Source: Longimicrobiales bacterium
GTDB lineage: Bacteria > Gemmatimonadota > Gemmatimonadetes > Longimicrobiales > Gaopeijiaceae
Assembly (NCBI GenBank): GCA_965219445.1
Contig: CBDCNQ010000003.1
Location: 1 to 64,000, forward strand
Length of the DNA: 64,000 nucleotides
Direction: 5' to 3'
The notes beneath the pieces were generated by a model. That model was not told the DNA's origin, did no database searches, and was given only the letters and a program-made list of their open reading frames with translations. Below are positions 1 through 13,176 of the stretch, piece by piece; positions within the stretch are counted from its first letter, which is position 1; every line of letters starts with the position of its first letter. Made by a program: the position numbers and the translations under genes.

Positions 1-270
1 GAATCGCCGCCCGTCGGACCACTCCACCATCTTCCGGTGCTCTTCGGGAGAAAGGCCGGATGTGACGAAGTCCTGGACCTCTCCCTGCTCGTCGATCGTC
101 GTGATCACGCCCAAGCGGGCGCCGGTGAGCGCGCGGGCACTCTCGACGACCTCCTCCAGCACGGTGGCCACGTCCAGGCTCTGGCTGATGCGGAGGATGG
201 CCGCGCTCAGCCGCGAGATGCGGTCGTCGGAGGGCCCGCTCCCGGGCCCCGTAGGGTCTCGATCGTTCAA
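1..270 (-). CDS. GAF-domain sensor protein (probably a histidine kinase), 5' part; runs off the window edge
   Basis: Manual minus-strand translation from TTG at 270 (GGAG upstream): MNDRDPTG...RISRLSAAILRISQSLDVATVLEEVVESARALTGARLGVITTIDEQGEVQDFVTSGLSPEEH, a typical GAF N-terminus. Not in the ORF track. Confidence 0.7.
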   Translation of the reverse strand, partial: MNDRDPTGPGSGPSDDRISRLSAAILRISQSLDVATVLEEVVESARALTGARLGVITTIDEQGEVQDFVTSGLSPEEHRKMVEWSDGRRF

Positions 271-452
271 TGCTCCACTCCCGCCGAAGGGTGAGGCGGA
301 GCGGACGAGGCTCCGGCCGATCGGCCCGGCCGCCTTCCGCCGGACCGCGGGGGGTGGAGGATAGCGCTCTTCGCGCGTGAAGTCACTAAAGGGCCACGAC
401 GCTCGCCCGACAAGTCACAACTCACTCACAAAATAGCGCGTAGCTTTCCGGA

Positions 453-484
453 TAGCTCTCGATAATTGTAGTTATCGAGAGTAA
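453..484. other. lox/dif-like recombination site (left)
   Basis: TAGCTCTCGATAATTGTAGTTATCGAGAGTAA: 10-bp inverted arms CTCTCGATAA/TTATCGAGAG around an asymmetric 6-bp spacer TTGTAG; exact reverse complement of 1555-1586. Confidence 0.85.
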
Positions 485-494
485 CCCGCGGCAA
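465..494 (-). promoter_or_regulatory. putative sigma70 promoter overlapping the left recombination site
   Basis: Minus strand TTGCCG (494-489), 18 bp, TACAAT (470-465); currently points at the GAF gene. Confidence 0.45.
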
Positions 495-531
495 GGATTG
501 TGACCAGAGAGGCCCCCGAGTTCTTCGGGGC

Positions 532-1533
532 TCATCTGCGTTTCTGAAGCCGTGCCAGCTGTGCGGCGCCGTTGCGCTTGGCCAGCAGCCGCTCGCCGTA
601 GCGCTGCACCATCTGGGCGTTCTTCCAGCGCCCGGCCTGCATGATCGCCGGGATCCCGATCCCTTTGGCGATCATGTCCTGAGCCGCGCCCACGCGGGGG
701 CTGTGCCCGGAGAGCCGCCGCACGATCTGCTCCGGCAGCCCGGCCCGTTCGGCCATCGCCTTGTAGATGCGCGGCACCTGGCTCTCATGCAGTTGGCCGC
801 CCAGCGTGCCGTCCTTGCGCATCGAACGGAAGAGCGGCCCGCCACTGATCCCGCTCGCGCCCAGCCACTCCGAGAGCAGCCTCACGCTGTCTCGGTGCAG
901 GTAGAGCATCGCGCCGCCGCCCTCCGGATCGGTCTTCGCGCGGCGCACGAGGAGCGAGGCCGAGCCGCCCCTTTCTATCGTCACATCAACGACTTGCAGC
1001 GCGACCAGCTCGGAGCGCCGGAGCATGGCGTCGTAGGCCACGGCCAGGATCGCGCGGTTCCTGACGTCGATCACCCGGTCGCCCGCGGCCTCCATCAGGC
1101 GCCGGCGGAGCGCCCAGGTCAGACCCTGCACCTGCCTCTGCCGGCACCCCCTCTGCCGGTGCATCCGCTTCAGCGCCCGCCGCACGGTCACGTGCTCGAG
1201 CGGGCTCCGCTCCCCGGCCGCCTTGTGCACGGTGGCGACGCTCGAGACGTAGCGCCGCACGGTGGCCGGCGCTCGCTCGCTCGCCATCGCCTCGACGTAG
1301 GCCACCACCGTGGCCGCGCGCGCGGGCAGCGGAGAGAGCCCCCGCTCGGCGCACCACGCCGCGAACCGTTCCAGGTCCGCTCGCACCGCTCGCACGGTAT
1401 GGCCGCTCAGGGCGCCGCGGGCGTCCTCCAGGTAGGCGGTCAGGCGCTCGCCGGTTTGTGACTTTCGAGTGGTGGGGTCGCGAAGCCCGGACACACCTGC
1501 TGGGGCTAAAATCCGCATAAGTGCCCCCTGCAC
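532..1533 (-). CDS. Cre-like tyrosine recombinase (SAM-like N-domain + catalytic domain)
   Basis: Catalytic motifs MLRRSEL (R), RAKTD (K), HSPR (HxxR), GRW (W, as in Cre), VQRY (Y). Start codon uncertain. Confidence 0.9.
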   Translation of the reverse strand: MQGALMRILAPAGVSGLRDPTTRKSQTGERLTAYLEDARGALSGHTVRAVRADLERFAAWCAERGLSPLPARAATVVAYVEAMASERAPATVRRYVSSVATVHKAAGERSPLEHVTVRRALKRMHRQRGCRQRQVQGLTWALRRRLMEAAGDRVIDVRNRAILAVAYDAMLRRSELVALQVVDVTIERGGSASLLVRRAKTDPEGGGAMLYLHRDSVRLLSEWLGASGISGGPLFRSMRKDGTLGGQLHESQVPRIYKAMAERAGLPEQIVRRLSGHSPRVGAAQDMIAKGIGIPAIMQAGRWKNAQMVQRYGERLLAKRNGAAQLARLQKRR

Positions 1534-1554
1534 AATGACATACAGCCAAAAAGT

Positions 1555-1586
1555 TTACTCTCGATAACTACAATTATCGAGAGCTA
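1555..1586. other. lox/dif-like recombination site (right, inverted)
   Basis: TTACTCTCGATAACTACAATTATCGAGAGCTA is a perfect reverse complement of 453-484. Confidence 0.85.
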
Positions 1587-1621
1587 AATCCGCGCGCGGA
1601 AACCGCAGGAGAACGAGCGAA

Positions 1622-4600
1622 GTGGACATCGCGATGACTAGGACACCGGACGGACGCGGCCGCGAGCGCCGCACGGATACCATCTTGCCGAGCGTCTTAA
1701 GCGCGAGGGAACACGGCTGCCCGCCTCCACGGCCTGACACCCTGCCGCCACGCCGTGGCGGCCGTCCTTCCTCAAAGACCGCATCCGCCGCCGGCCGGCC
1801 GGCGGGTTTCGCGCGCCTGCGCGGTGCGCGGCGCTCGCTTGTCGGCTCCGCCGGGGCGCTGGCCGCCGCGGCGCTGCTCGCGCTCTCCGGCGCGCTCGCC
1901 CTCCCGGCCACGGCCACGGCCCAGACTAACGTGCTCGTGAGCAACGTGGGAAAGAGCGACAACGGTACAAGCGGTACTCCGTCCGCCTCCGTCCCCATGG
2001 CCCAAGGGTTCGAAACGGGTTCCGATGCGGACGGCTACGACCTCGGCAGCGTCGTTCTGGAGTTCGGGAGTGCGCCGACCGGGACCGGCACGGTGAGGGT
2101 CACGGTGAGGCAAGAGTCAACGCTAACACACCCAGTAACCGGCCTCATTTATCCCAGCCCTTTCGAGCTGTACTGGCTGGCCAACCCCACAGCACTTTCG
2201 TCCGGATTGAACGAATTCACAGCCCCGCCAGGCGCCACGCTGGAGACGAACACGACCTATTTCGTGATGGTGTCCTACAGCACAAGCTCCGGCGGCCCTA
2301 GTTGGGACCGCGTACTGTTGAGCAGTGGTCTGGACGCCGACGCTGCCACGGGCTGGGACATTGATGACGCGTACCAGCAGTACAGCAGCATGGGTTGGGA
2401 GGAGGAGTCGAGTGACCGAGCATTTAAGATTCAGGTCAGGGGCACCACCGCGATGGCCGCGCCGGCCGTGCCGACGAACTTCACCGCCGCGCCGGGCAAC
2501 GCGGAAGTGACGCTCGCCTGGGACGCGCCGGCATCGGGTTCGGGCGTCACGCGCCACGAGTTCCGGTACAAGACGGACGGGAGCTATCCCGTGACCTGGA
2601 CGCAGATTGCGGGCAGCGGGGTGGGCGGCGCCAACGAGGCCGGGTACACGGTGCCGAGTCTCACCAACGAGACAGAGCACACCTTCGAGTTGCGCGCGGT
2701 GAACGCCGGCGGCGGCGGCGCGGCAGCGGAGTCGGACCCGGTGACGCCGACGCCGGGCATCTGCGACCGCACGCAGCAGGTGCAGGACCGGATCGTGACC
2801 TACGTGAACGCGATCTTCAACGTCGACTACGACTGTTCGGAGGTGACGGTGGCGAACCTGGCCAGGTTGAATAATATGGCGCTCGGCAACAAGGGGATCA
2901 CGTCGCTCCAGGCGGGCGACTTCGCCGGCCTGACGGGGCTGGAGAGGTTGAGCCTGGGCGACAATTCTCTGACCGCGCTTCCCTCGGGGGTGTTCTCCGA
3001 TCTGACGTCCATGACGAGCCTCTGGCTGGCCGCCAACTCGCTGACCGCGCTTCCCGAGGACTTGTTTTCCGGTCTGACGAATCTGGAGGAGCTCACACTG
3101 AAAAACAACGAACTGGAAACGCTTCCTGCCGGGGTGTTCTCCGGACTGAGGGCCGTGGGGACTATTCAGTTGCAGGAGAACCAACTCGAAACGCTTCCCG
3201 AGGGGGTGTTCTCCGGACTGACGGCGCTGGGCACCATCTGGCTGCAAGACAACACATCGCTGGGATCGCTTCCTGCGAACCTGTTCTCGGGGCTCACCAG
3301 TCTGAGAACAGTCGATCTACACAACATCGGCCTGACCACGCTACCCGCAGGGCTGTTCTCCGGCCGGACGAACATGTATTCCATCGACCTGCGTGAGAAC
3401 GAACTGGAAACGCTCCCCGCGAACGTGTTCTCGGGGCTGACGAAGCTGAACGGCATCACTCTGACCGACAACGATCTGCGTTCGCTTCCCCCTGGGCTGT
3501 TCTCCGGCCTTACGGCGCTGCAGAAAATCCGTCTGGCAGGCAACAAACTGAGTGCGCTCCCCGACGGGTTGTTCTCCGGGCTGACGTTGCTGACATTCGT
3601 CAGTCTGGACCGCAACACCGTCGATCCTCTGCCGCTCACGGTGACCCTGGACAAGGTGGGGACCGACCAGGTGCGGGCGAAGGTGCGGGCGGGGGCGCCG
3701 GGCACGGTCGATTTTACGGTGACGGTGGCGAACGGGACGCTCGCGGGCGGTGTGACGACGCTCAGTGTGGCGCAAGGCTCGGTGGAAGGCACCACCGCGG
3801 TCACCGTGATCCGCACGGACGGGACGACGGCGGCAGTGACGGCGGACGTCGACCTGACGACCCAGCCGACGTTCGCCCCGGGGGTGTACGTCGGGGGGTC
3901 AACCTTCGTCCGGTCGACCTCGGGGCTGCCGGCGACGATCCTGCCGGGCACCACGCAAGTGCCGCCGCTCCCCGCGCCGACCGGTTTCAGCGCCGAGGCC
4001 GGCGACGGCGAGGTGACGCTGTCCTGGACCGATCCGGGGTCGGGTTCGGACGTCACGCATCACGACTACCGATTCAGGACCGACGGGGATTACGGGGACT
4101 GGATCGAGATCGACGACAGCGGCCCGGGCGAGACCAACGCGGCCGGCTTCACGGTGACGGCGGACATCGTCAACGGCAGAGCCTACACCTTCCACCTCCG
4201 CGCGGGCGGGGACGACGGCGACAGCCCGGCGGTCGAGGCGGGTCGGGTGACGCCGACGGGACTGCCCCCCAGAGTCACCTCCGTGGTGGTCGCGTCCGCG
4301 CCGCAGTCGGGGGACACGTACCGCTCATACGAGACGATCGTGTTCACGGTGACGTTCAGCGAGCCGGTGGAGGTCAAACCACACGGGCGACTGAGGCTGA
4401 AGGTCGGTCTCGACAATCCCGGCGGGGCGTCCGGGAGCACGGTGGAGGCTGTGTTCTCGGGCCTCTCGCAGAGCCAGCGGCCGACTGCCGATACCCCGCA
4501 GGCCCGGCTCGCCCGGCATATGCATTTCAAATACAAGGTGCAGCTGTTCGACCGCGACGAGGACGGTGTGCGCATCGGCGCCAACGCGTTGCGGCTCGCC

Positions 4601-6967
4601 TCCGGGGCACGGATTCGAAATGAGGTCGGCAGCGACGCGGAGTTGGACCATGTCGCGCTCGGTCCGCAGTCCGACCACAAGGTTGACGGGAGGGCGGACG
4701 TGCCGATGATCCGAGGGATCGAGGTGGTCTCGACGCCGCGGCTGAGTTCGAAGGGCACCACGACCAGGGACACCTACGGCGAGGGCGAGAACATCCGCAT
4801 CGAGGTGCGCTTCGACCAGCCGGTGGTGGTCGAGGGCGAGCCGACGTTCGCGCTCGAGGTGGGCAATCCCTGCCGGGCGGTGTGCGAGGCCGACTACGCG
4901 TCGGGGAGCGGCACGAACACGCTGGTGTTCGCGTACCTGGTGCTGGAGGTCGACATCGACCGCAACGGCATCGCGATCCGCGGCAACCCGATCGAGGTGG
5001 TGTCCGGCGACCGCATCCGCAACGCCGCGGACCAGGAGGCGCACCTTTCCTCCAAGGGGAAGGGCACGCAGCGCGGCCACAAGGTGGACGGGTCACGGGC
5101 GGCGGGGCCGTACCTGTCGGTGGAGGACGCCGAGGCGCACGAGGCCGACGGCGAGATGGAGTTCACGGTGCGCCTGGAGCCGCACGGCCTGGGCATCGTG
5201 ACGGTCGACTACGCGACGGCCGACGGCTCGGGGGACAGGGGCGCGGTCGCGGGCGAGGACTACACGGAGACGAGCGGCACGCTGAGGTTCAATTCGCTGG
5301 AGACGGAGCGGACGGTGTCGGTGCCGATCACGGACGACGACGAGGAGGACGACGGGGAGACGTTCACGCTGGTGCTGAGCAACGCCTTGGGCGCGGGGCT
5401 CGCGGACAACGAGGCGGTGGGCACGATCCGGAACAGCGAGACGACGCCGGCGGCGGAGCTGACGGCGGAGTTCCGGGACATGCCGGAGACGCACGACGGG
5501 GAGAGCGCGTTCACGTTCCGGGTGGCGTTCAGCGAGGACATCGGGATCAGCTTCCGCGCGCTGCGCGAGGACGCGTTCACGGTGACCGGGGGCCGTGTGA
5601 CGCGGGGCACGCGGGTGGACGACCGGCGCGACCTGTTCGAGATGACGGTCGAGCCGGACTCGGACGGGGCCGTGACGATCGAGCTGGCGGCGGGCCGCGA
5701 GTGCGCGACGTCCGGTGCGATCTGCACCAAGGGCGAGAACCGGCGGCAGTTGACCAACGGCCCGTCGGCGACGGTGGCGGGTCCGGCGGGCGGCTCGGGG
5801 CCGCCGGAGCTGACGGCGTCGTTCGAGGGCATGCCGGCCAAACACCGTGGCGAGGGCGGGTTCCACTTCCGGGTGGCGTTCAGCGAGGACATCGGGATCA
5901 GCTTCCGGGCGCTGCGCGAGGACGCGTTCACGGTGACCGGGGGCCGTGCGACGCGGGGCACGCGGGTGGACGACCGGCGCGACCTGTTCGAGATGACGGT
6001 GAGGCCGGACTCGGACGGGGACGTGACGATCGAGCTGCCGGCGGGGCGCGAGTGCGCGACGTCCGGTGCGATCTGCACGAAGGGCGAGAACCGGAGGCAG
6101 TTGACCAACAGCCCGTCGGCGACGGTCAAGGGTCCGGCGGCGAGCTCCGCGGCGGCCGCCCCCGGCTGGCCAGACCGGGCCGCGCGCCTCTGCTCCGCGC
6201 TGGGCATTGGAGAGGAGATGACCCGGACATCAATGGTCGCGGCGTTGTGGGAGGACGGCGATCCCGGCAAAGACCGGCTCGACGCCTTGGACAGTCTCGG
6301 CAACGGGAACGGAGGGTATGACCTCGGCGACATGCTCGCCTGGGCCGCCCGCTGCCGCGGGGGTGAGGCATCCGGGCCGGCCGCCGGCTCCGGACCGCCC
6401 TCCCCGCCCCCCGCGCTCCCTGCGTCGGGGCCGGCGGGAGGGGCCAGCTGGCGGCGGAAGCGCGCGCGCGGCCCTGCCCGCCGCCGCCGAACGGTTCCCG
6501 ACCCACCCGCCACCGGTTCCGCGACCCGCCGGTCCGGGTGGTTGCGGACGGCGCTGCTGGTGGCGGTGACCTCGGTCTGGGGCTGCGGGGACGGCATCGT
6601 CGACCCGCGGAATGACGCACCCCGGTATGACGTAGCCAACGCGTCGGTCGTGGATCCCGGCCCTCTGCACGTTCGGTTGACGGCCCCGCCGCAGGCCCGC
6701 GACATCGGAGCCATGCTGGTGATCGAGGGTCCGGCCATCGACTCGCTGCAGGCGCCGGGTCTCGAGATGTTCGAGACGGAAGAATCGTCCTCGACGAGAC
6801 GCGAGGTCGTCATCGCCGGTGCGCTGCCGCCAGACGGGCCCGTGCTGCGGGTCTGGGTGCCCCACCGGGGCGACCACGCCCGGTACCGCGTGAGGCTGCT
6901 GCAGGTGGCGGCCGAGGACTTCACGCTCGGGGACCTGAGCGTGTACGGGAGCGTGATCTCCCGCTGA
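1622..6967 (+). CDS. giant secreted/surface protein: FN3, ~11 leucine-rich repeats, FN3, Ig-like repeats, Calx-beta, duplicated ~117-aa domain
   Basis: Signal-like segment AALLALSGALALPATATAQ; 24-aa LRRs (LTxLxxLxLxxNxLxxLPxGxFSG); FN3 motifs (VTLAWDAP, YTFHLRA); Calx-beta (VTVDYATADG...DYTETSGTLRF...DDEEDDGETFTLVLSN); AGGAG RBS. Confidence 0.9.
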   Translation: MDIAMTRTPDGRGRERRTDTILPSVLSAREHGCPPPRPDTLPPRRGGRPSSKTASAAGRPAGFARLRGARRSLVGSAGALAAAALLALSGALALPATATAQTNVLVSNVGKSDNGTSGTPSASVPMAQGFETGSDADGYDLGSVVLEFGSAPTGTGTVRVTVRQESTLTHPVTGLIYPSPFELYWLANPTALSSGLNEFTAPPGATLETNTTYFVMVSYSTSSGGPSWDRVLLSSGLDADAATGWDIDDAYQQYSSMGWEEESSDRAFKIQVRGTTAMAAPAVPTNFTAAPGNAEVTLAWDAPASGSGVTRHEFRYKTDGSYPVTWTQIAGSGVGGANEAGYTVPSLTNETEHTFELRAVNAGGGGAAAESDPVTPTPGICDRTQQVQDRIVTYVNAIFNVDYDCSEVTVANLARLNNMALGNKGITSLQAGDFAGLTGLERLSLGDNSLTALPSGVFSDLTSMTSLWLAANSLTALPEDLFSGLTNLEELTLKNNELETLPAGVFSGLRAVGTIQLQENQLETLPEGVFSGLTALGTIWLQDNTSLGSLPANLFSGLTSLRTVDLHNIGLTTLPAGLFSGRTNMYSIDLRENELETLPANVFSGLTKLNGITLTDNDLRSLPPGLFSGLTALQKIRLAGNKLSALPDGLFSGLTLLTFVSLDRNTVDPLPLTVTLDKVGTDQVRAKVRAGAPGTVDFTVTVANGTLAGGVTTLSVAQGSVEGTTAVTVIRTDGTTAAVTADVDLTTQPTFAPGVYVGGSTFVRSTSGLPATILPGTTQVPPLPAPTGFSAEAGDGEVTLSWTDPGSGSDVTHHDYRFRTDGDYGDWIEIDDSGPGETNAAGFTVTADIVNGRAYTFHLRAGGDDGDSPAVEAGRVTPTGLPPRVTSVVVASAPQSGDTYRSYETIVFTVTFSEPVEVKPHGRLRLKVGLDNPGGASGSTVEAVFSGLSQSQRPTADTPQARLARHMHFKYKVQLFDRDEDGVRIGANALRLASGARIRNEVGSDAELDHVALGPQSDHKVDGRADVPMIRGIEVVSTPRLSSKGTTTRDTYGEGENIRIEVRFDQPVVVEGEPTFALEVGNPCRAVCEADYASGSGTNTLVFAYLVLEVDIDRNGIAIRGNPIEVVSGDRIRNAADQEAHLSSKGKGTQRGHKVDGSRAAGPYLSVEDAEAHEADGEMEFTVRLEPHGLGIVTVDYATADGSGDRGAVAGEDYTETSGTLRFNSLETERTVSVPITDDDEEDDGETFTLVLSNALGAGLADNEAVGTIRNSETTPAAELTAEFRDMPETHDGESAFTFRVAFSEDIGISFRALREDAFTVTGGRVTRGTRVDDRRDLFEMTVEPDSDGAVTIELAAGRECATSGAICTKGENRRQLTNGPSATVAGPAGGSGPPELTASFEGMPAKHRGEGGFHFRVAFSEDIGISFRALREDAFTVTGGRATRGTRVDDRRDLFEMTVRPDSDGDVTIELPAGRECATSGAICTKGENRRQLTNSPSATVKGPAASSAAAAPGWPDRAARLCSALGIGEEMTRTSMVAALWEDGDPGKDRLDALDSLGNGNGGYDLGDMLAWAARCRGGEASGPAAGSGPPSPPPALPASGPAGGASWRRKRARGPARRRRTVPDPPATGSATRRSGWLRTALLVAVTSVWGCGDGIVDPRNDAPRYDVANASVVDPGPLHVRLTAPPQARDIGAMLVIEGPAIDSLQAPGLEMFETEESSSTRREVVIAGALPPDGPVLRVWVPHRGDHARYRVRLLQVAAEDFTLGDLSVYGSVISR
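5456..6137 (+). repeat. intragenic tandem duplication, 351-bp period
   Basis: 5516-5775 and 5867-6126 are near-identical (FRVAFSEDIGISFRALREDAFTVTGG...CATSGAICTKGENRRQLTN). Confidence 0.9.
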
Positions 6968-7173
6968 GCGCTGGGCGCGGCGCCCGCCTTGACGTGTGGG
7001 GCCGCGCCCGCTCGATGCGGCAAGATCAAGATCCAGGGTGACCCTCCCCGCGACCCGCCGGCCAACCTTCGACTCACTTGAAAGCTCCCTCCGAGGCGAG
7101 ATCTGGCCGTGCCCGGCCAGCCTCGGCCGTGGATGAGCGGGTCCTCGTGGGCCGCGTCTCGACCGTAACCGCC

Positions 7174-7440
7174 ATGGAGACACTGACGAAGCCGTTCCGA
7201 TCGCGAGTGGCTGCGTCCCTCGACCGCACGGGCATGAGAACATCCACGCTCGGTCAGCAAGCGGTGGGCGATCCCAACCCGGTGCGTCAGCTCCGTCCTG
7301 GCCGATCCCCGAGGCTGGCGATGGCCTGCCAGGTCCCCGTGTTCATCGAAGCCTGCCGCCGGGCCCAAGTGGCCCCTGTTCCCTCCCGGGGCAACGCGCC
7401 CCGGAATTCTTCACCGAACAGAGCGGAGGCAGACCGATGA
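7174..7440 (+). CDS. small Cro-like/HTH protein of a mobile element (possibly degenerate)
   Basis: METLTKPFRSRVAASLDRTGMRTSTLGQQAVGDPNPVRQLRPGRSPRL; overlaps the alpA start (ATGA). Confidence 0.45.
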   Translation: METLTKPFRSRVAASLDRTGMRTSTLGQQAVGDPNPVRQLRPGRSPRLAMACQVPVFIEACRRAQVAPVPSRGNAPRNSSPNRAEADR

Positions 7441-7664
7441 CGAGAGCAATAGAACAGGGCATGGACGCGCCCGCCCGCGTCCTGAGGTTACCTCGAGTGC
7501 AGGCCCGCACCGGGCTGGCGCGGAGCACGATCTACGTGCGGGTGGCCGACGGGAGCTTTCCCCAACCGATCCGGCTAGGCGCGCGCGCCGTCGGCTGGAT
7601 CGAGTCCGAAGTGGATGCGTGGATCCGAGAGCAGATCGCCGCGAGCCGCGGCAACGCGAAGTGA
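7437..7664 (+). CDS. alpA: AlpA-family regulator/excisionase
   Basis: VLRLPRVQARTGLARSTIYVRVADGSFPQPIRLGARAVGWIESEVDAWI. Confidence 0.9.
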   Translation: MTRAIEQGMDAPARVLRLPRVQARTGLARSTIYVRVADGSFPQPIRLGARAVGWIESEVDAWIREQIAASRGNAK

Positions 7665-8331
7665 TCTGAGACGATAACCATCTGACAGTTCGCAATGACA
7701 GAGGGACGGGGGCCATCGACAAACTGCCCTCCCGCACGCTTCGCTCCTTCGCCTCCTCCGGGAACCTCCGCTACGGTCCACTGGATTCCCGTTCAGAAAG
7801 AGGGATGTAATGAGGGAACCAGGTGGGACTGGTCAGTAATAAAGCCTTATATGACAATAAGTTACAATTGATCAAGCGCGTCTTGCGCCTTCGCGGCCGG
7901 GTCGGTCAGCGCCGCACGGGCAGCACTGACCGGGACGGGAGCGACCCCCCAGTCCGAGGGCCTGGTACGGGTTCGGGGGCAGGTGTGTTTGCGCACCTGC
8001 CCCCGCCCTCCTGGGGTCGCTCCCGAGCCATCGATCCTTCCAGGAAGGGTGTTGGACCGATGAGGCCGGCTACGCTCGCCATCATCGGCACCGCTCTGGG
8101 AGCGGCCGCCATCTACGCCGTCGCTCGTGCAGCCGGACTCACCGACCTCGGGCTGCGCGTCGATCTCGCCGAGGGCGACTGGGAACGAACGCGGAGACCG
8201 GGCGGGCGGCGGGCCGACGAGATCGGCCCAAACGTGCGCGCACACCTCGCCGTGCGTCCGTCGAGACCCTGCCAGCCACCTGGCGGACGCAGGCCAAGGC
8301 GCTCCGCCGGTACGGGGGCGACACTCCGGCC

Positions 8332-8631
8332 GTGGCGCTCGAAAGCTGCGCGGCCGAGCTCGAGACCACGCTCAGGGAGAGGGACGAGACCACCCTCTCG
8401 CTGACGGAGGCCGCCAGGGAGAGCGGCTACTCCGCTGACCATCTCGGCCGCCTCGTGCGCGACGGCAAGATCCCCAACACCGGAAGACCCGGCGCGCCCC
8501 GGATCGCCCGCTCGCACCTGCCACGGAAGACCCAGGCGCCAGCCACACCGCTACTGGTGGAAAAGCATCGCCGAGGCGAAGTTCCCAACGCGCAGATCGT
8601 GCAGTCCATCATCGAGGGAGGAATCGAATGA
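8332..8631 (+). CDS. HTH DNA-binding/excisionase-like protein
   Basis: LSLTEAARESGYSADHLGRLVRDGKIP. The frame stays open upstream; the true start may be ATG 8060 with a frameshift. Coupled to the integrase start at 8628. Confidence 0.6.
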   Translation: MALESCAAELETTLRERDETTLSLTEAARESGYSADHLGRLVRDGKIPNTGRPGAPRIARSHLPRKTQAPATPLLVEKHRRGEVPNAQIVQSIIEGGIE

Positions 8632-8732
8632 TGGCACGCACGAAACCTATCCGGCGCTCCTACGGCGCCGGCGAATGGGGCCGGAACCGGGTACGGGTCT
8701 TTCCCGATCCCAAGACCGGCCTGTTCCAGATC
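8628..8732 (+). pseudogene. 5' fragment (35 codons) of the tyrosine integrase continued at 14403
   Basis: MMARTKPIRRSYGAGEWGRNRVRVFPDPKTGLFQI joins in frame to EWRDNGRRLTRSL via the shared LFQI-encoding repeat. Confidence 0.85.
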
Positions 8733-8880
8733 AACGGGCCGGGTGGAACATTGGTGGAACATATTGGACCTTCCCGGACCATTCTCCACAGGCCGAAAGT
8801 CCTTTACAGACAACGATTTCTCCAATAACCACCGTCCCATGGCGTTCCTTGCGGTCCCAATCGATTCCATGTACTATTGA

Positions 8881-10056
8881 TTGCAGAAGGTGCAACGGCA
8901 AGTCATACACGGAATCGAGAGACACGCCATCAAACACCCCTCGAAACCCCTCAGCGCCTCATTCGTGAAGCACGTCAAGCGGCCGGGCCGGCACGGCGAC
9001 GGCGGGCGCGGCTCGCACGGCCTCTACCTGCGCGTCTGGCGGCGTCCGAACGGACGCATCGGCAAGGCGTGGGCTCAGCGCCTCCGTGTCGGCGGCAAGG
9101 TCACGTCCCTGGGGTTGGGACCCTATCCCGTCGTCACGCTGGCGGAGGCGCGGGCGAAGGCGCTCGGGAACCGCCGCGCCGCCCACGCGGGACGCGATCC
9201 CCGGGGCGGCGGAGTTCCGACGTTCGAGGTGGCGGCCAGGAAGTTCATCAAGCTGCATTCGCGGACGTGGAAGGCCGGGTCGCGGCTCCCCCGGGAGTGG
9301 GAGCAGACCCTCGCGGACTACGCCCTTCCCATTGTCGGGCGCAAATCCGTGGCGGCGGTCACGACCGGCGACGTGCTGGCCGTGCTCACTCCGATCTGGC
9401 ACACGAAGCCGGCGACGGCGAAGAAGGTCCGCCAGCGCATCGGGGCGGTGATGAAGTGGGCCGTTGCCCAGGGCCACCGCACCGACAACCCGGCGGGCGA
9501 GGAGATCAAGGCCGCGTTGCCGAACGGGAGCGGCCACACCCGCCACCATCGGGCGCTCCCTCACGACCGGGTTGCCGAAGTCCTCTCGAAGACCAGGAGC
9601 AACGTCAACGGCGTCGCCTTGCGGTTCGTCGTGCTCACCGCCTGCCGCGTGTCGGAGGTCGCCGGGGCGAAGTGGTCCGAGATCGACAGCGGCGTTTGGA
9701 CGATCCCGGCTTCGAGGATGAAGACGAAGAAGGAACACCGTGTTCCGCTGTCGTCGGCCGCCTTGCGGGTGCTCGCCGAAGCGAAGTCCGATTCGCCGTT
9801 CGTTTTCCCCGGACGGGGCGGGAAGCCGATTGCTCGCCAGTCCATCGGACGGGCGCTCAACGGGACGAAGGCGACGCCTCACGGGTTCCGTAGCTCGTTC
9901 CGGGATTGGTGCTCCGAGACGGGAGTTCCCCGCGAGGTCGCCGAAAGGGCGCTCGCACATGTCGTCGGGAACAGGGTCGAGGCCGCGTACAACAGGACCG
10001 ACTTGCTGGAGCGCCGCCGCGAGGTCATGGAGGCGTGGGGGCGGTACCTGTCGTAA
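8881..10056 (+). CDS. P4-like tyrosine integrase with arm-DNA-binding domain
   Basis: GLYLRV, LGLGPYPVVTLAEAR, LTACRVSEV, RMKTKKEHRVPLS, TPHGFRSSFRDW, ALAH, AAYNRTDLLERRR. Confidence 0.95.
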   Translation: MQKVQRQVIHGIERHAIKHPSKPLSASFVKHVKRPGRHGDGGRGSHGLYLRVWRRPNGRIGKAWAQRLRVGGKVTSLGLGPYPVVTLAEARAKALGNRRAAHAGRDPRGGGVPTFEVAARKFIKLHSRTWKAGSRLPREWEQTLADYALPIVGRKSVAAVTTGDVLAVLTPIWHTKPATAKKVRQRIGAVMKWAVAQGHRTDNPAGEEIKAALPNGSGHTRHHRALPHDRVAEVLSKTRSNVNGVALRFVVLTACRVSEVAGAKWSEIDSGVWTIPASRMKTKKEHRVPLSSAALRVLAEAKSDSPFVFPGRGGKPIARQSIGRALNGTKATPHGFRSSFRDWCSETGVPREVAERALAHVVGNRVEAAYNRTDLLERRREVMEAWGRYLS

Positions 10057-10554: not shown

Positions 10555-13176
10555 ATGCTGACGTCGTCAAGAGGCCGTTTCCTCATCGCCGCTTTTTGTG
10601 GCCGCGCCGCGCTGCTGTTACTGCTGACCGCAGCGCCGGCGGCCGCCCAGCAAACGGGAACCATCAGGGGCACGGTAGTGGACGTGTCCGGCAACGCCTT
10701 GCCCGATATCTTGGTGACCGCAACCGGTTCCGGCGTGAGCGAGGAAGTCGTCACGGATGCTGAAAGCGCCTACGAATTCCCCGCTCTCGCCGCCGGCGAC
10801 TATGTCGTAACCGCCACCCTGTTCGGTTATGCGCCCCGGGAGATTCAGGTCACCGTGGGCGCAGGTGCCGTGGAAACGGTCCCGATCGTTCTGGAGCCCA
10901 CTTTCCGGCTCGATCCGCTGAGCGTGGTGGCGGAGGAGCCCACGGTCTTCGCGCGCAATTTCGTCGCGGAACCGATGATCAGGCAGCAGTCGAACATGAC
11001 CGCTGTGACGTCGGTGATCGACAACCTTCCCGGCGTGTCCGTCCAAGAGGGGGACGCGTACGCCTTTGACGACTGGTCGAGCAACGTCGTCATGCGCGGG
11101 TTCCAATCGACCATCAACGATGCACAGATCGGTACCACCATCGACGGATTCCCCAATGGCACGTCGGACTACTGGAGCGGCGCGAAGGCGAACCGGTTCG
11201 TCGACCCGATGAACCTCGGTGGGGTCGAGGTGTCGCAGGGGACCGCCGACATCGCCTCCCGGTCGGTCGAGGCGCTGGGCGGCACGCTCAATTTCTTGAC
11301 GGCCGACCCGGCGGCGGAGCGGAGCCACACGGCGTCCGTCACGATCGGCGAGAACGAGGGCCAGCGGTTCGCCGCGCGTGTCGAGACCGGATCGTTGTTC
11401 GGCGGCACGACGCGGGCCTGGGTAGCCGCGATCCGGCAGGAGGCGACCGACTGGATGGAGGGCTCCGCAAGGAACGAGCGGGAGCACCTCGCCGCCAAGA
11501 TCGTGTTTTCGCACGGACCTCTCGATCTCACCGGCTACATGTCGCACGACGACATCCACGAGGATGTCTACCAACGGCTCAACGGCGAGGCGGACTTCAG
11601 GGCCGACCCGCGCTGGGACCGGCTGGTCGGCCACTGGCCCGGCGTGCCCTACCTGAACCAGTTCTACCGCCCCGGCTGGCAGACACGGCGCAAGAACACG
11701 CTCGCCTACCTCAAGGCCGACTGGTCCGTCAGCGAGTTGATCTCCCTGAGCGCGGGCGCGTACCATCATGACAACCGGGGCCGTGGCGACTGGTTGCCCC
11801 CCTACATCGTGGACGTGGTGGACGACGGGAATCGGCCGGAGTCGGAGCTGGCGGGCCTCGCGCCGGTGCGGGGCGGCACGCAGCTCGGGGTAGTCCACTT
11901 CGTGGACGGCAATGGCGTCGCCGTCGGACCGGCGCCGGGATGCACGTCGTCCTACATCTTCAACTACTATGGGTCGGGCGACCCGGAGGTCGACCCGGCG
12001 TGCCACCCCGGGGCGACCGCGGTTCAGTCGTACCGTCACAGCCATTACGGGAAGAATCGCCTCGGCGTCAACATCGACGGGGAGTGGTCCGTTTTGTTTG
12101 GCGGGGGAGGGGGCAGCGGGCTGCGGGCGGGCATCTGGTACGAGGACTCGCGGCGCGACCTCGGCCGGGACTGGCACCGGATGCTGGACCCTGCGCTCAA
12201 CTTCAAGTGGGACGAGCAGGCCTATTGGCACCAGTACGAGTGGGACTTTCCGCAGGACGTCTTTAAGTGGTACGTGGAGGAGACGCTGTACTTCGGCCCG
12301 TTCGAATTGGCCGGCGGCGTCAAGCAGTACCTTGTCTCCGTGTCGCGCGAGGACCAGTTCGGCATTGATCGGGACCTTGGTGTCGATTCCGATTCGGAGC
12401 TGCTCTTCTCCGGCGGCGTCACCTACGAGACGCCGGTCGAGGGCCTCGACCTGTTCGCGGGCTACGCCGAGAACTTCAGGGCGATCAGCAGCACGTTGCT
12501 CGAGGCCCCGAGCCGCAGTTTGGACCTCCTGGAGCCCGAGACCGCGTCGAACATCGATGTCGGGGTTCAATACTCCGGCGAGCGGCTCGCGCTGAGCGCC
12601 ACCATGTATTCCATCGATTTTGACAACCGGATCTTCTACCTCGGCCCCCAGACGCCCGCAGGACCCAACTACCTCATCCCCGGAGGGGGAGCCTACTTCA
12701 ACGCGGGCGGGATCGAAACGAGTGGTGTCGAGTTGGCCGCCACGGTGGCGATGCCGGGTCGGACATCCTTCTACACCGCGTTGACGCTCAACGACTCGAA
12801 GTACGTCGGGACCGACGATCCGCTCGTTGACGCCAGCCAGGGCATTGTGCCCGGCACGGACGTTACGGGCGTACCGCCTCGGCTGTGGGTGGTGTCCCTC
12901 GACCGCACCGGACCCCTGGGTGGCGGGCTGTCTGCGAAATACACGGCATCGCGCCGCGTCAGTCTGACGGCGGACTGGTACACCGACGCCTACTGGGTGG
13001 TAGACGCCTACGTCAGCTTCAGCGGCGAAGCGTTGAGCGATCTGTTCCGGGCGACGGAGTTCTCGATCGTGGCGAACAACGTACTCGACAGCCCCTATCT
13101 GTCCGCGATCACCGAGAACGCGGCCTGGCTGGGCGCACCCCGGACGATATCGATGACCACGACCGTCTCCTTCTGA
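10555..13176 (+). CDS. TonB-dependent receptor with N-terminal carboxypeptidase-regulatory-like domain
   Basis: Signal peptide, GTIRGTVVD, plug (LPGVSV, GGTLNF), LEPETASNIDVG, NNVLDSPY, C-terminal F. Confidence 0.9.
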   Translation: MLTSSRGRFLIAAFCGRAALLLLLTAAPAAAQQTGTIRGTVVDVSGNALPDILVTATGSGVSEEVVTDAESAYEFPALAAGDYVVTATLFGYAPREIQVTVGAGAVETVPIVLEPTFRLDPLSVVAEEPTVFARNFVAEPMIRQQSNMTAVTSVIDNLPGVSVQEGDAYAFDDWSSNVVMRGFQSTINDAQIGTTIDGFPNGTSDYWSGAKANRFVDPMNLGGVEVSQGTADIASRSVEALGGTLNFLTADPAAERSHTASVTIGENEGQRFAARVETGSLFGGTTRAWVAAIRQEATDWMEGSARNEREHLAAKIVFSHGPLDLTGYMSHDDIHEDVYQRLNGEADFRADPRWDRLVGHWPGVPYLNQFYRPGWQTRRKNTLAYLKADWSVSELISLSAGAYHHDNRGRGDWLPPYIVDVVDDGNRPESELAGLAPVRGGTQLGVVHFVDGNGVAVGPAPGCTSSYIFNYYGSGDPEVDPACHPGATAVQSYRHSHYGKNRLGVNIDGEWSVLFGGGGGSGLRAGIWYEDSRRDLGRDWHRMLDPALNFKWDEQAYWHQYEWDFPQDVFKWYVEETLYFGPFELAGGVKQYLVSVSREDQFGIDRDLGVDSDSELLFSGGVTYETPVEGLDLFAGYAENFRAISSTLLEAPSRSLDLLEPETASNIDVGVQYSGERLALSATMYSIDFDNRIFYLGPQTPAGPNYLIPGGGAYFNAGGIETSGVELAATVAMPGRTSFYTALTLNDSKYVGTDDPLVDASQGIVPGTDVTGVPPRLWVVSLDRTGPLGGGLSAKYTASRRVSLTADWYTDAYWVVDAYVSFSGEALSDLFRATEFSIVANNVLDSPYLSAITENAAWLGAPRTISMTTTVSF

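Follow-up and report, generated by a model that had tools for sequence, protein, structure and literature searches.

This locus raises the question of what a Cre-type recombinase gene does between two inverted lox-like sites on a bacterial chromosome. Cre itself separates P1 dimers (PMC8138268), and the loxP site has a 13+8+13 architecture, as described in PMC10250229. The window studied here is the whole stretch of 64,000 nt at the start of contig C3 of genome G000 (G000:C3:1-64000). The comparisons below argue that the segment between the sites is probably the invertible promoter of a surface-protein gene, that is, a Hin-like phase switch that would be run by a Cre-type enzyme. The original prediction took up the enzyme and its sites; the outward promoter-like motif, the surface-protein gene and the sensor-regulator are added here.

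The recombinase and its sites

The recombinase gene is found at 532-1518 on the reverse strand and codes for 328 aa from the ATG at 1518, or for 333 aa from a GTG at 1533. The ATG is the likelier start, because most close database proteins among the matches listed are 328 aa long and an SD-like stretch precedes it. The Pfam scan of this protein returned Phage_integrase (PF00589) and Phage_int_SAM_1 (PF02899) only, and no arm-binding domain. Among solved structures it matches Cre best, with about 29% identity (E 4.6e-29), and 17 of the 18 matches there are Cre or Tre; among phage records the best match reaches 29%. The catalytic positions of Cre correspond to R167, K195, H272, R275, W298, and Y307 (328-aa numbering). 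The Cre-type R-K-HxxR-W-Y motifs that had been read from the letters are thus present at all six positions, and they are invariant in 15 of 15 aligned relatives. An AlphaFold model built from the 15-row alignment was poor (pLDDT 53, pTM 0.38). By its size, its Pfam domains, its catalytic residues and the 13+8+13 site next to its gene, the predicted enzyme is a Cre-type tyrosine recombinase.

A repeat search of the window showed that the arms 453-484 and 1555-1586 form an inverted repeat of 32 nt each, 100% complementary. The 10+6+10 palindrome occurs twice at up to three mismatches in the 64 kb, against a mean of 0.00 and a largest count of 0 in 100 shuffles, and the spacer TTGTAG of one site is the reverse complement of the CTACAA of the other. 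The paired 32-bp inverted sites of the original prediction are therefore confirmed and are confined in the window to these two positions, and the distances that it gave to the ends of the open reading frame (47 and 21 bp) are correct for the frame 532-1533. In the 13+8+13 frame, the regulator-side site spans 452-485 (identical core 453-484) and the cargo-side site, inverted with respect to it, spans 1554-1587 (identical core 1555-1586), with palindromic arm positions of 10/13 and 11/13. The three arm asymmetries of the left site are one above the filter limit given in PMC10250229. A terminator-like match at 1584-1557 was rejected, as it consists of the site palindrome plus a T run that is not kept in L001.

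Relatives and paired evolution of the spacers

A scan of species-representative genomes yielded 29 loci, and the identity is 63-93% for 22 of these; they span Ca. Palauibacter, Longimicrobiales, other Gemmatimonadota, Vicinamibacterales, Latescibacterota, and Gammaproteobacteria. In the order of G000, 30 of 303 genomes match and all belong to its own family (29 of the 214 others there; 0/39 and 0/49 in two other families), and one gammaproteobacterial family has matches in 4 of 85 genomes. As many as seven recombinase matches occur per genome (G181). A metagenome scan contributed two loci, one of them useful (L043), and a profile search that included more distant groups placed 1994 of 8000 scored candidates at E<=1e-40. 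In total, 109 recombinase hits in 117 loci were merged into 66 rows, two of which were dropped for identity below 50%, leaving 64; the merging of identical sequences also collapsed L004/L005, L017/L018, and both G000 copies.

In all but two of the 53 cassettes with both sites, one spacer is the exact reverse complement of the other (51 of 53), whereas random re-pairing gives a mean of 8.0 and a maximum of 16 of 53. This agreement is kept through 16 spacer types among related cassettes, with 25 changes over 17 labels on a tree of 57 proteins from which seven broken or partial rows were left out. Both exceptions (L098 and L084) have a one-base mismatch and belong to one genome that holds both spacer types. 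Since Cre-type recombination needs matching spacers in the partner sites (PMC10250229), the matched spacers point to continued recombination between both sites. Homologs without paired sites had been named beforehand as evidence that would speak against such a unit; the homologs found keep paired inverted sites whose spacers co-vary. In the branch of L017, L018, and L020, the spacer has one additional base (7-nt core) and the arms differ, both sites being altered together, and the recombinase carries an N-terminal insertion. The four nearest plasmid relatives (45-46% identity) have at most one 13+8+13-type palindrome upstream and none of the four has a matched second site; therefore, the site pair is a derived feature.

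Insulation of copies within a genome by different spacers was also considered and is not supported by a reading by eye: copies share the spacer in G000, G143, L004/L005, and L017/L018, and differ in L002/L003 and L014/L016. Some cassettes depart from the simple form. Extra sites with a different spacer have been seen beside a truncated or intact cassette (L041:8608, L041:10444, and L012:3306), possibly as remnants of nested or fused cassettes. In L019 an IS21-family element with an integrase core and IstB (L019:4639-7028) lies between cre and the downstream site and extends the cassette to 3.26 kb, with the spacers still matched. Outer branches (L069, L088, L101-L103, L115-L117, and L012) have cassettes of 1195-1373 bp with paired inverted sites, mostly an outward promoter-like motif and no recognisable regulator flank. 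Finally, two related recombinase genes lie about 3.4 kb apart in L101/L104 (G298:C1:536807-542035) and in L102/L105 (G292:C1:332080-337410), where one recombinase is bracketed by sites and none was found for the other.

Orientation of the segment

We call state A the orientation in which cre points at the control region, as in the window, and state B the one in which it points away. Among 64 distinct close loci, many of them close kin so that locus counts are not independent, 47 are in state A and 6 in state B (five firmly assigned), and 11 outer-branch loci lack a recognisable control region. L042 and L043 were placed in B by their cargo flanks and L041 is a weak assignment; on the 57-protein tree, the B rows are spread over three distinct clades, each well supported.

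Two pairs of loci from different genomes have both flanks swapped at the sites. In L008 and L065 the cassettes are 92% alike on the same strand, the flanks are 96.6 and 88.4% alike on the opposite strand, and the switch occurs at the sites. In L100 and L011 the cassette matches forward at 96.6-98.9%, the regulator flank reversed at 98.6% and the cargo flank reversed at 92-98%. Another example is found within one genome (G041), where the cassettes of L007 and L011 match forward at 99.4% and the regulator flank reversed at 98.6%, a comparison limited to the regulator side, as the contig of L007 starts within cre. In the L007 site, the outer arm is that of one L011 site and the inner arm that of its partner, which is what a crossover within the spacer would produce. 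The end of the G041 chromosome record does not continue the L007 gene. The self-inverting unit originally proposed is thus borne out at the comparative level, with both orientations across genomes, breakpoints at the sites, and co-varying spacers. Four public runs compared with window 1-3000 (88% likeness) provided contigs only, from mixed relatives, and no strand-changing joint at the sites appeared among the 15 joints listed, with 37 more unlisted. Among the runs listed, the single RNA run had a word share of 0.05.

An intact gene with both matched sites is found in 38 of the 47 A loci and in 2 of the 6 B loci, where L007 fails by its contig end and L100 by an insertion. The damaged B copies fit the persistence of an ON state when the reset is broken, but also B as a decayed dead end. 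The L100 insertion is a mutator-family transposase in the 5′ end of cre, and the cre gene of L011 has a frameshift near codon 65. In L007, L011, and L100 the usual cre ATG stands one base out of frame, and the frame can instead be entered at a GTG further downstream, so that the true start may differ in this branch.

A conserved three-part module

From the comparison of loci, the cassette is the predicted flippable core of a conserved module with three parts, namely a regulator gene with its control region, the lox-cre-lox segment, and a variable surface-protein gene. The minimal unit of the original prediction therefore stands in that one recombinase gene lies between the sites, but it is not free-standing, as the conserved control region and the regulator gene adjoin it at the left.

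The constant flank consists of a control region of about 120 nt, followed by the regulator gene pointing away from the cassette. The window contains the 5′ end of this gene (1-270, reverse strand); the full protein of 781 aa, read from an overlapping contig (L037:7500-9845), is a hybrid regulator with a GAF-PAS-HisKA-HATPase-receiver-OmpR-type DNA-binding (Trans_reg_C) architecture. An alignment of 40 control flanks revealed four GTGA(C)-like direct repeats (382-429, reverse strand; 426-429, 414-418, 393-397, and 382-386) with spacings of 11, 21, and 11. A -10-like hexamer TATCCT of the putative regulator promoter lies at 358-363 on the reverse strand, 18 nt after the last GTGAC box, and this geometry is found in 39 of 47 control flanks. 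OmpR/PhoB-type domains bind tandem boxes, and the repeat pattern of the control region resembles that; by analogy, the repeats are probably boxes for the OmpR-type domain of the regulator. There are also boxes inside the cassette: a single GTGAC (500-504, forward strand) that faces the control-region boxes across the site in 33 of 43 cassettes, and a tandem GTGAC/GTGGT with 11-nt spacing (1458-1473, forward strand) at the poorly conserved cre 5′ end in 24 of 43. These extra boxes kept inside the cassette could be accessory sites for recombination.

The control region was directly scored in 49 of the 53 orientation-assigned loci. A site, together with cre or part of it, accompanies all three of its matches in G000 and all 16 strong matches among 30 loci fetched by the control flank, and no empty site was found in either set. 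Three loci (L130, L131, and L134) have regulator genes and weak likeness to the control region, with neither site nor recombinase; they may be cassette-free relatives or ancestral promoters. Two hybrid-regulator paralogs (62%) in G000 (G000:C5:21776-24085 and 427993-430296) have an unrelated upstream region and neither site nor cre.

The other flank is variable. It leads into a gene pointing away from the cassette, and the 46 cargo flanks fall in 20 families, near-identical recombinases adjoining different families. LRR, fn3, Calx-beta, cadherin-like, or SWM/Ig repeats were found in 16 of the 19 cargo-side ORFs scanned; of the rest, one has hexapeptide repeats and two have no Pfam match. In the window, the cargo gene (1622-6967, forward strand, GTG start) codes for 1781 aa with fibronectin-III, LRR, and Calx-beta repeats, which together with a signal-peptide-like stretch predict a surface protein. 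A Shine-Dalgarno-like AGGAG (1607-1611, forward strand) lies 10 nt before this GTG and about 20 nt from the site. A simple pattern of Shine-Dalgarno and start within 120 nt of the site is present in only 25 of the 46 cargo flanks, which counts against the switch model.

Copies in the source genome and island context

The last part of contig C5 (G000:C5:1695575-1702419) matches window 1-6845 at 99.97% with two 1-bp gaps; the two are probably one locus assembled twice. The gaps lie near window 4145 and 6348, and the first splits the cargo gene of the C5 copy (1000 aa + 804 aa), probably by an assembly error in one copy. A second, distinct cassette on contig C2 is 98.6% identical over window 363-1586 and has the same spacer; its control region is cut short after 93 nt, and its different cargo flank begins exactly where the right site ends. 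A scan of G000 found no further strong site beyond these known copies. Stretches at window 7042-7819 and 8102-8732 are repeated many times across G000. These repeats surround genes for AlpA (7437-7664) and for an arm-type integrase (8881-10056) and mark a multi-copy integrative-island family, the probable carrier of the switch. A TonB-dependent receptor gene (10555-13176) directly follows the integrase.

Promoter-like motifs at the segment ends

One promoter-like motif, here called P_out, points outward from the segment at 465-494 on the reverse strand, with a -35 element TTGCCG (494-489), an 18-nt gap and a -10 element TACAAT (470-465) in the site spacer. It is the sole sigma-70-like site in window 250-1900 (1 found, shuffled mean 0.1), as scored with our own weights on a sigma-70 consensus and with single-base shuffles. 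A flip restores its sequence intact at the opposite end of the segment. An outward motif at the cre 3′ end reaches p<=0.1 in 42 of 52 cassettes (L019 being left out for its IS21 insertion), and the other three combinations of end and strand do so in 5, 7, and 4. The -10 element lies in the spacer in the branch of the window, and wholly inside the segment in other branches. At the motif level, the segment can be said to contain a candidate outward promoter. An outward promoter at the cre 5′ end was rejected (4/52). A sense motif at that end occurs in only 7 of 52 cassettes, which counts against the model as regards cre expression in state A.

A second motif, P_in, is a -10-like TAGCTT at 441-446 on the forward strand, 9 nt outside the palindrome core and pointing into the cassette. 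A TAnnnT hexamer 7-12 nt from the site, a distance window set after viewing the alignment, occurs in 43 of 49 control flanks, of which 35 have it precisely 9 nt away, against a shuffled mean of 5.8 and a maximum of 11 of 49, and in 1 of 43 cargo flanks. In state A, P_in and P_out thus stand head to head at the left site.

The proposed switch and its alternatives

Starting from what is read in the letters (sites, an intact enzyme, spacer co-variation, orientations across genomes, and motif positions), we infer a sequence of steps that concerns catalysis, transcription, ON and OFF states, self-reset, and regulator binding. The Cre-type enzyme would recombine the inverted, spacer-matched sites and so flip the 1.1-kb segment that holds its own gene and P_out. 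In state A, that of the window, cre and P_out would face the regulator side and the ribosome-binding site of the cargo gene, just outside the other site, would be left without a promoter (OFF); both promoters would collide at the left site and cre would be read antisense. In state B, P_out would face the surface-protein gene (ON). P_in, fixed in the regulator flank, would read cre in the antisense direction in A and in the sense direction in B, where both promoters would face cre and the cargo gene, so that the surface protein and the resetting recombinase would both be made. As cre would be made mainly in B, the segment would be driven back to A. The GTGAC repeats beside P_in are the probable target of the hybrid kinase/OmpR-type protein, which would tune the switch. 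Such a self-reset would explain the 47 A against 6 B loci and why most B rows are damaged.

The same preponderance of state A would also suit a segment that inverts with another logic, in which P_in reads through to the cargo gene in A under the control of the regulator, or the flip mainly toggles the regulator or cre itself and not the surface protein. In fact, P_out points at the regulator gene in A, and P_in points toward the cargo gene in both states. We nevertheless hold this to be unlikely, given that the regulator has a conserved box-plus-hexamer promoter motif of its own, that the left site in A has P_in and P_out overlapping in opposed directions, and that in B both point at the cargo gene.

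There are two further explanations. The sites might mainly serve to swap surface-protein genes between cassette loci, as a dispersed shufflon in which inversion is a side reaction. This would account for the high number of recombinase matches in G181, for the 20 families of cargo flanks with near-identical recombinases beside different ones, for the C2 and C3 copies of G000, which share a spacer and whose homology stops right where the cargo-side site ends, and for the mixed-spacer cassettes in the genome with both spacer types. It is quite improbable as the main role, as many genomes hold one match, exchange needs no dedicated outward promoter and no exchange product has been traced directly. 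Less credible still is an IS-like mobile unit with transposition ends, or a plasmid-type resolvase whose second site is kept by chance, which we regard as very improbable and largely refuted: one flank is constant and is a control region, whose matches (3/3 in G000 and 16/16 strong) carry a site and cre or a fragment, with no empty site among them. The features that recall such an element are the single gene between terminal inverted repeats, the presence in several phyla at 63-93% identity and the relatives on plasmids, but carriage in integrative islands, marked by AlpA and an arm-type integrase (7437-10056), accounts for the spread. A working inversion switch is very probable, and the invertible promoter of a surface-protein gene remains our preferred reading, held as probable. 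A wider proposal is offered tentatively, as possible rather than probable: a sensor-coupled, self-resetting Cre/lox switch, whose module would travel between phyla on islands and whose lox sites would let copies swap cargo genes. In it, one hybrid kinase/OmpR-type protein would determine how active P_in is, and the flip to ON would bring the recombinase and the large eukaryote-like surface protein together under P_in, so that ON would end by itself.

Comparison with known systems

With Cre/loxP, Dre/rox, Vika, and the YR series, the system shares the catalytic residues, the 13+8+13 site and the matched spacers, and the inner GATA motif of its site resembles one noted for active sites (PMC10250229). 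One supplementary file of that study contains neither Gemmatimonad, Palauibacter, or Longimicrob nor the site arm. P1 Cre has one site per replicon and resolves direct repeats, whereas here each cassette has two chromosomal sites inverted to each other, G000 holds two cassettes, and the inverted sites enclose the recombinase gene and a promoter-like motif. The nearest annotated relatives are Methylobacterium/Methylorubrum plasmid recombinases (YR14-type, 45-46% identity). Among these plasmid relatives, L149 and L151 share the inner motif of the cassette sites within a 13+8+13 site of their own, and the L151 site is nearly the one listed for YR14 (PMC10250229). Unlike the paired sites described here, YR14-type relatives have at most one upstream site, in a plasmid setting near toxin-antitoxin genes. 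PMC10250229 names eight enzymes as active in E. coli; YR14, a Methylobacterium candidate, is not one of them. The original prediction also saw a candidate new orthogonal recombinase/site pair in the cassette.

In organisation, the module has parallels among phase switches. Hin belongs to the serine recombinases, has sites of 26 bp and needs Fis and an enhancer, in contrast to the Cre-type tyrosine enzyme of the cassette, which has in addition a dedicated sensor-regulator and a putative inward promoter beside the segment. The hin gene lies inside the H-segment. As in the cassette, Salmonella Hin/hix has a segment of about 1 kb with inverted sites and a promoter flip for a surface antigen (PMC3798978, PMC9368917). 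In E. coli fim and the Bacteroides invertons, tyrosine invertases also flip promoters of surface structures (PMC11868660, PMC11892184). In gut invertons, unlike in the model proposed here, the invertase genes are generally near the inverton and not under its promoter (PMC11892184). A literature search, for which most subscription papers were beyond reach, returned no description of this module. The fim and Bacteroides invertases are not known to be of the Cre type with sites of lox architecture.

Biological significance

The invertible-promoter kind of switch is already known; what would be new is one that uses a Cre-type enzyme/site pair. Cre-type enzymes are known in nature mainly as replicon resolvers, and phase variation would, if the model is true, be their second natural job, reached independently of Hin and Fim. 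The natural series of enzymes and sites with 16 spacer types would, if active, also be a resource for recombinase engineering. For the organisms themselves, among whose relatives Ca. Palauibacter are sponge symbionts, the switch would, if true, give uncultured bacteria a sensor-controlled variation of surface proteins of the LRR, fibronectin, and cadherin-like types.
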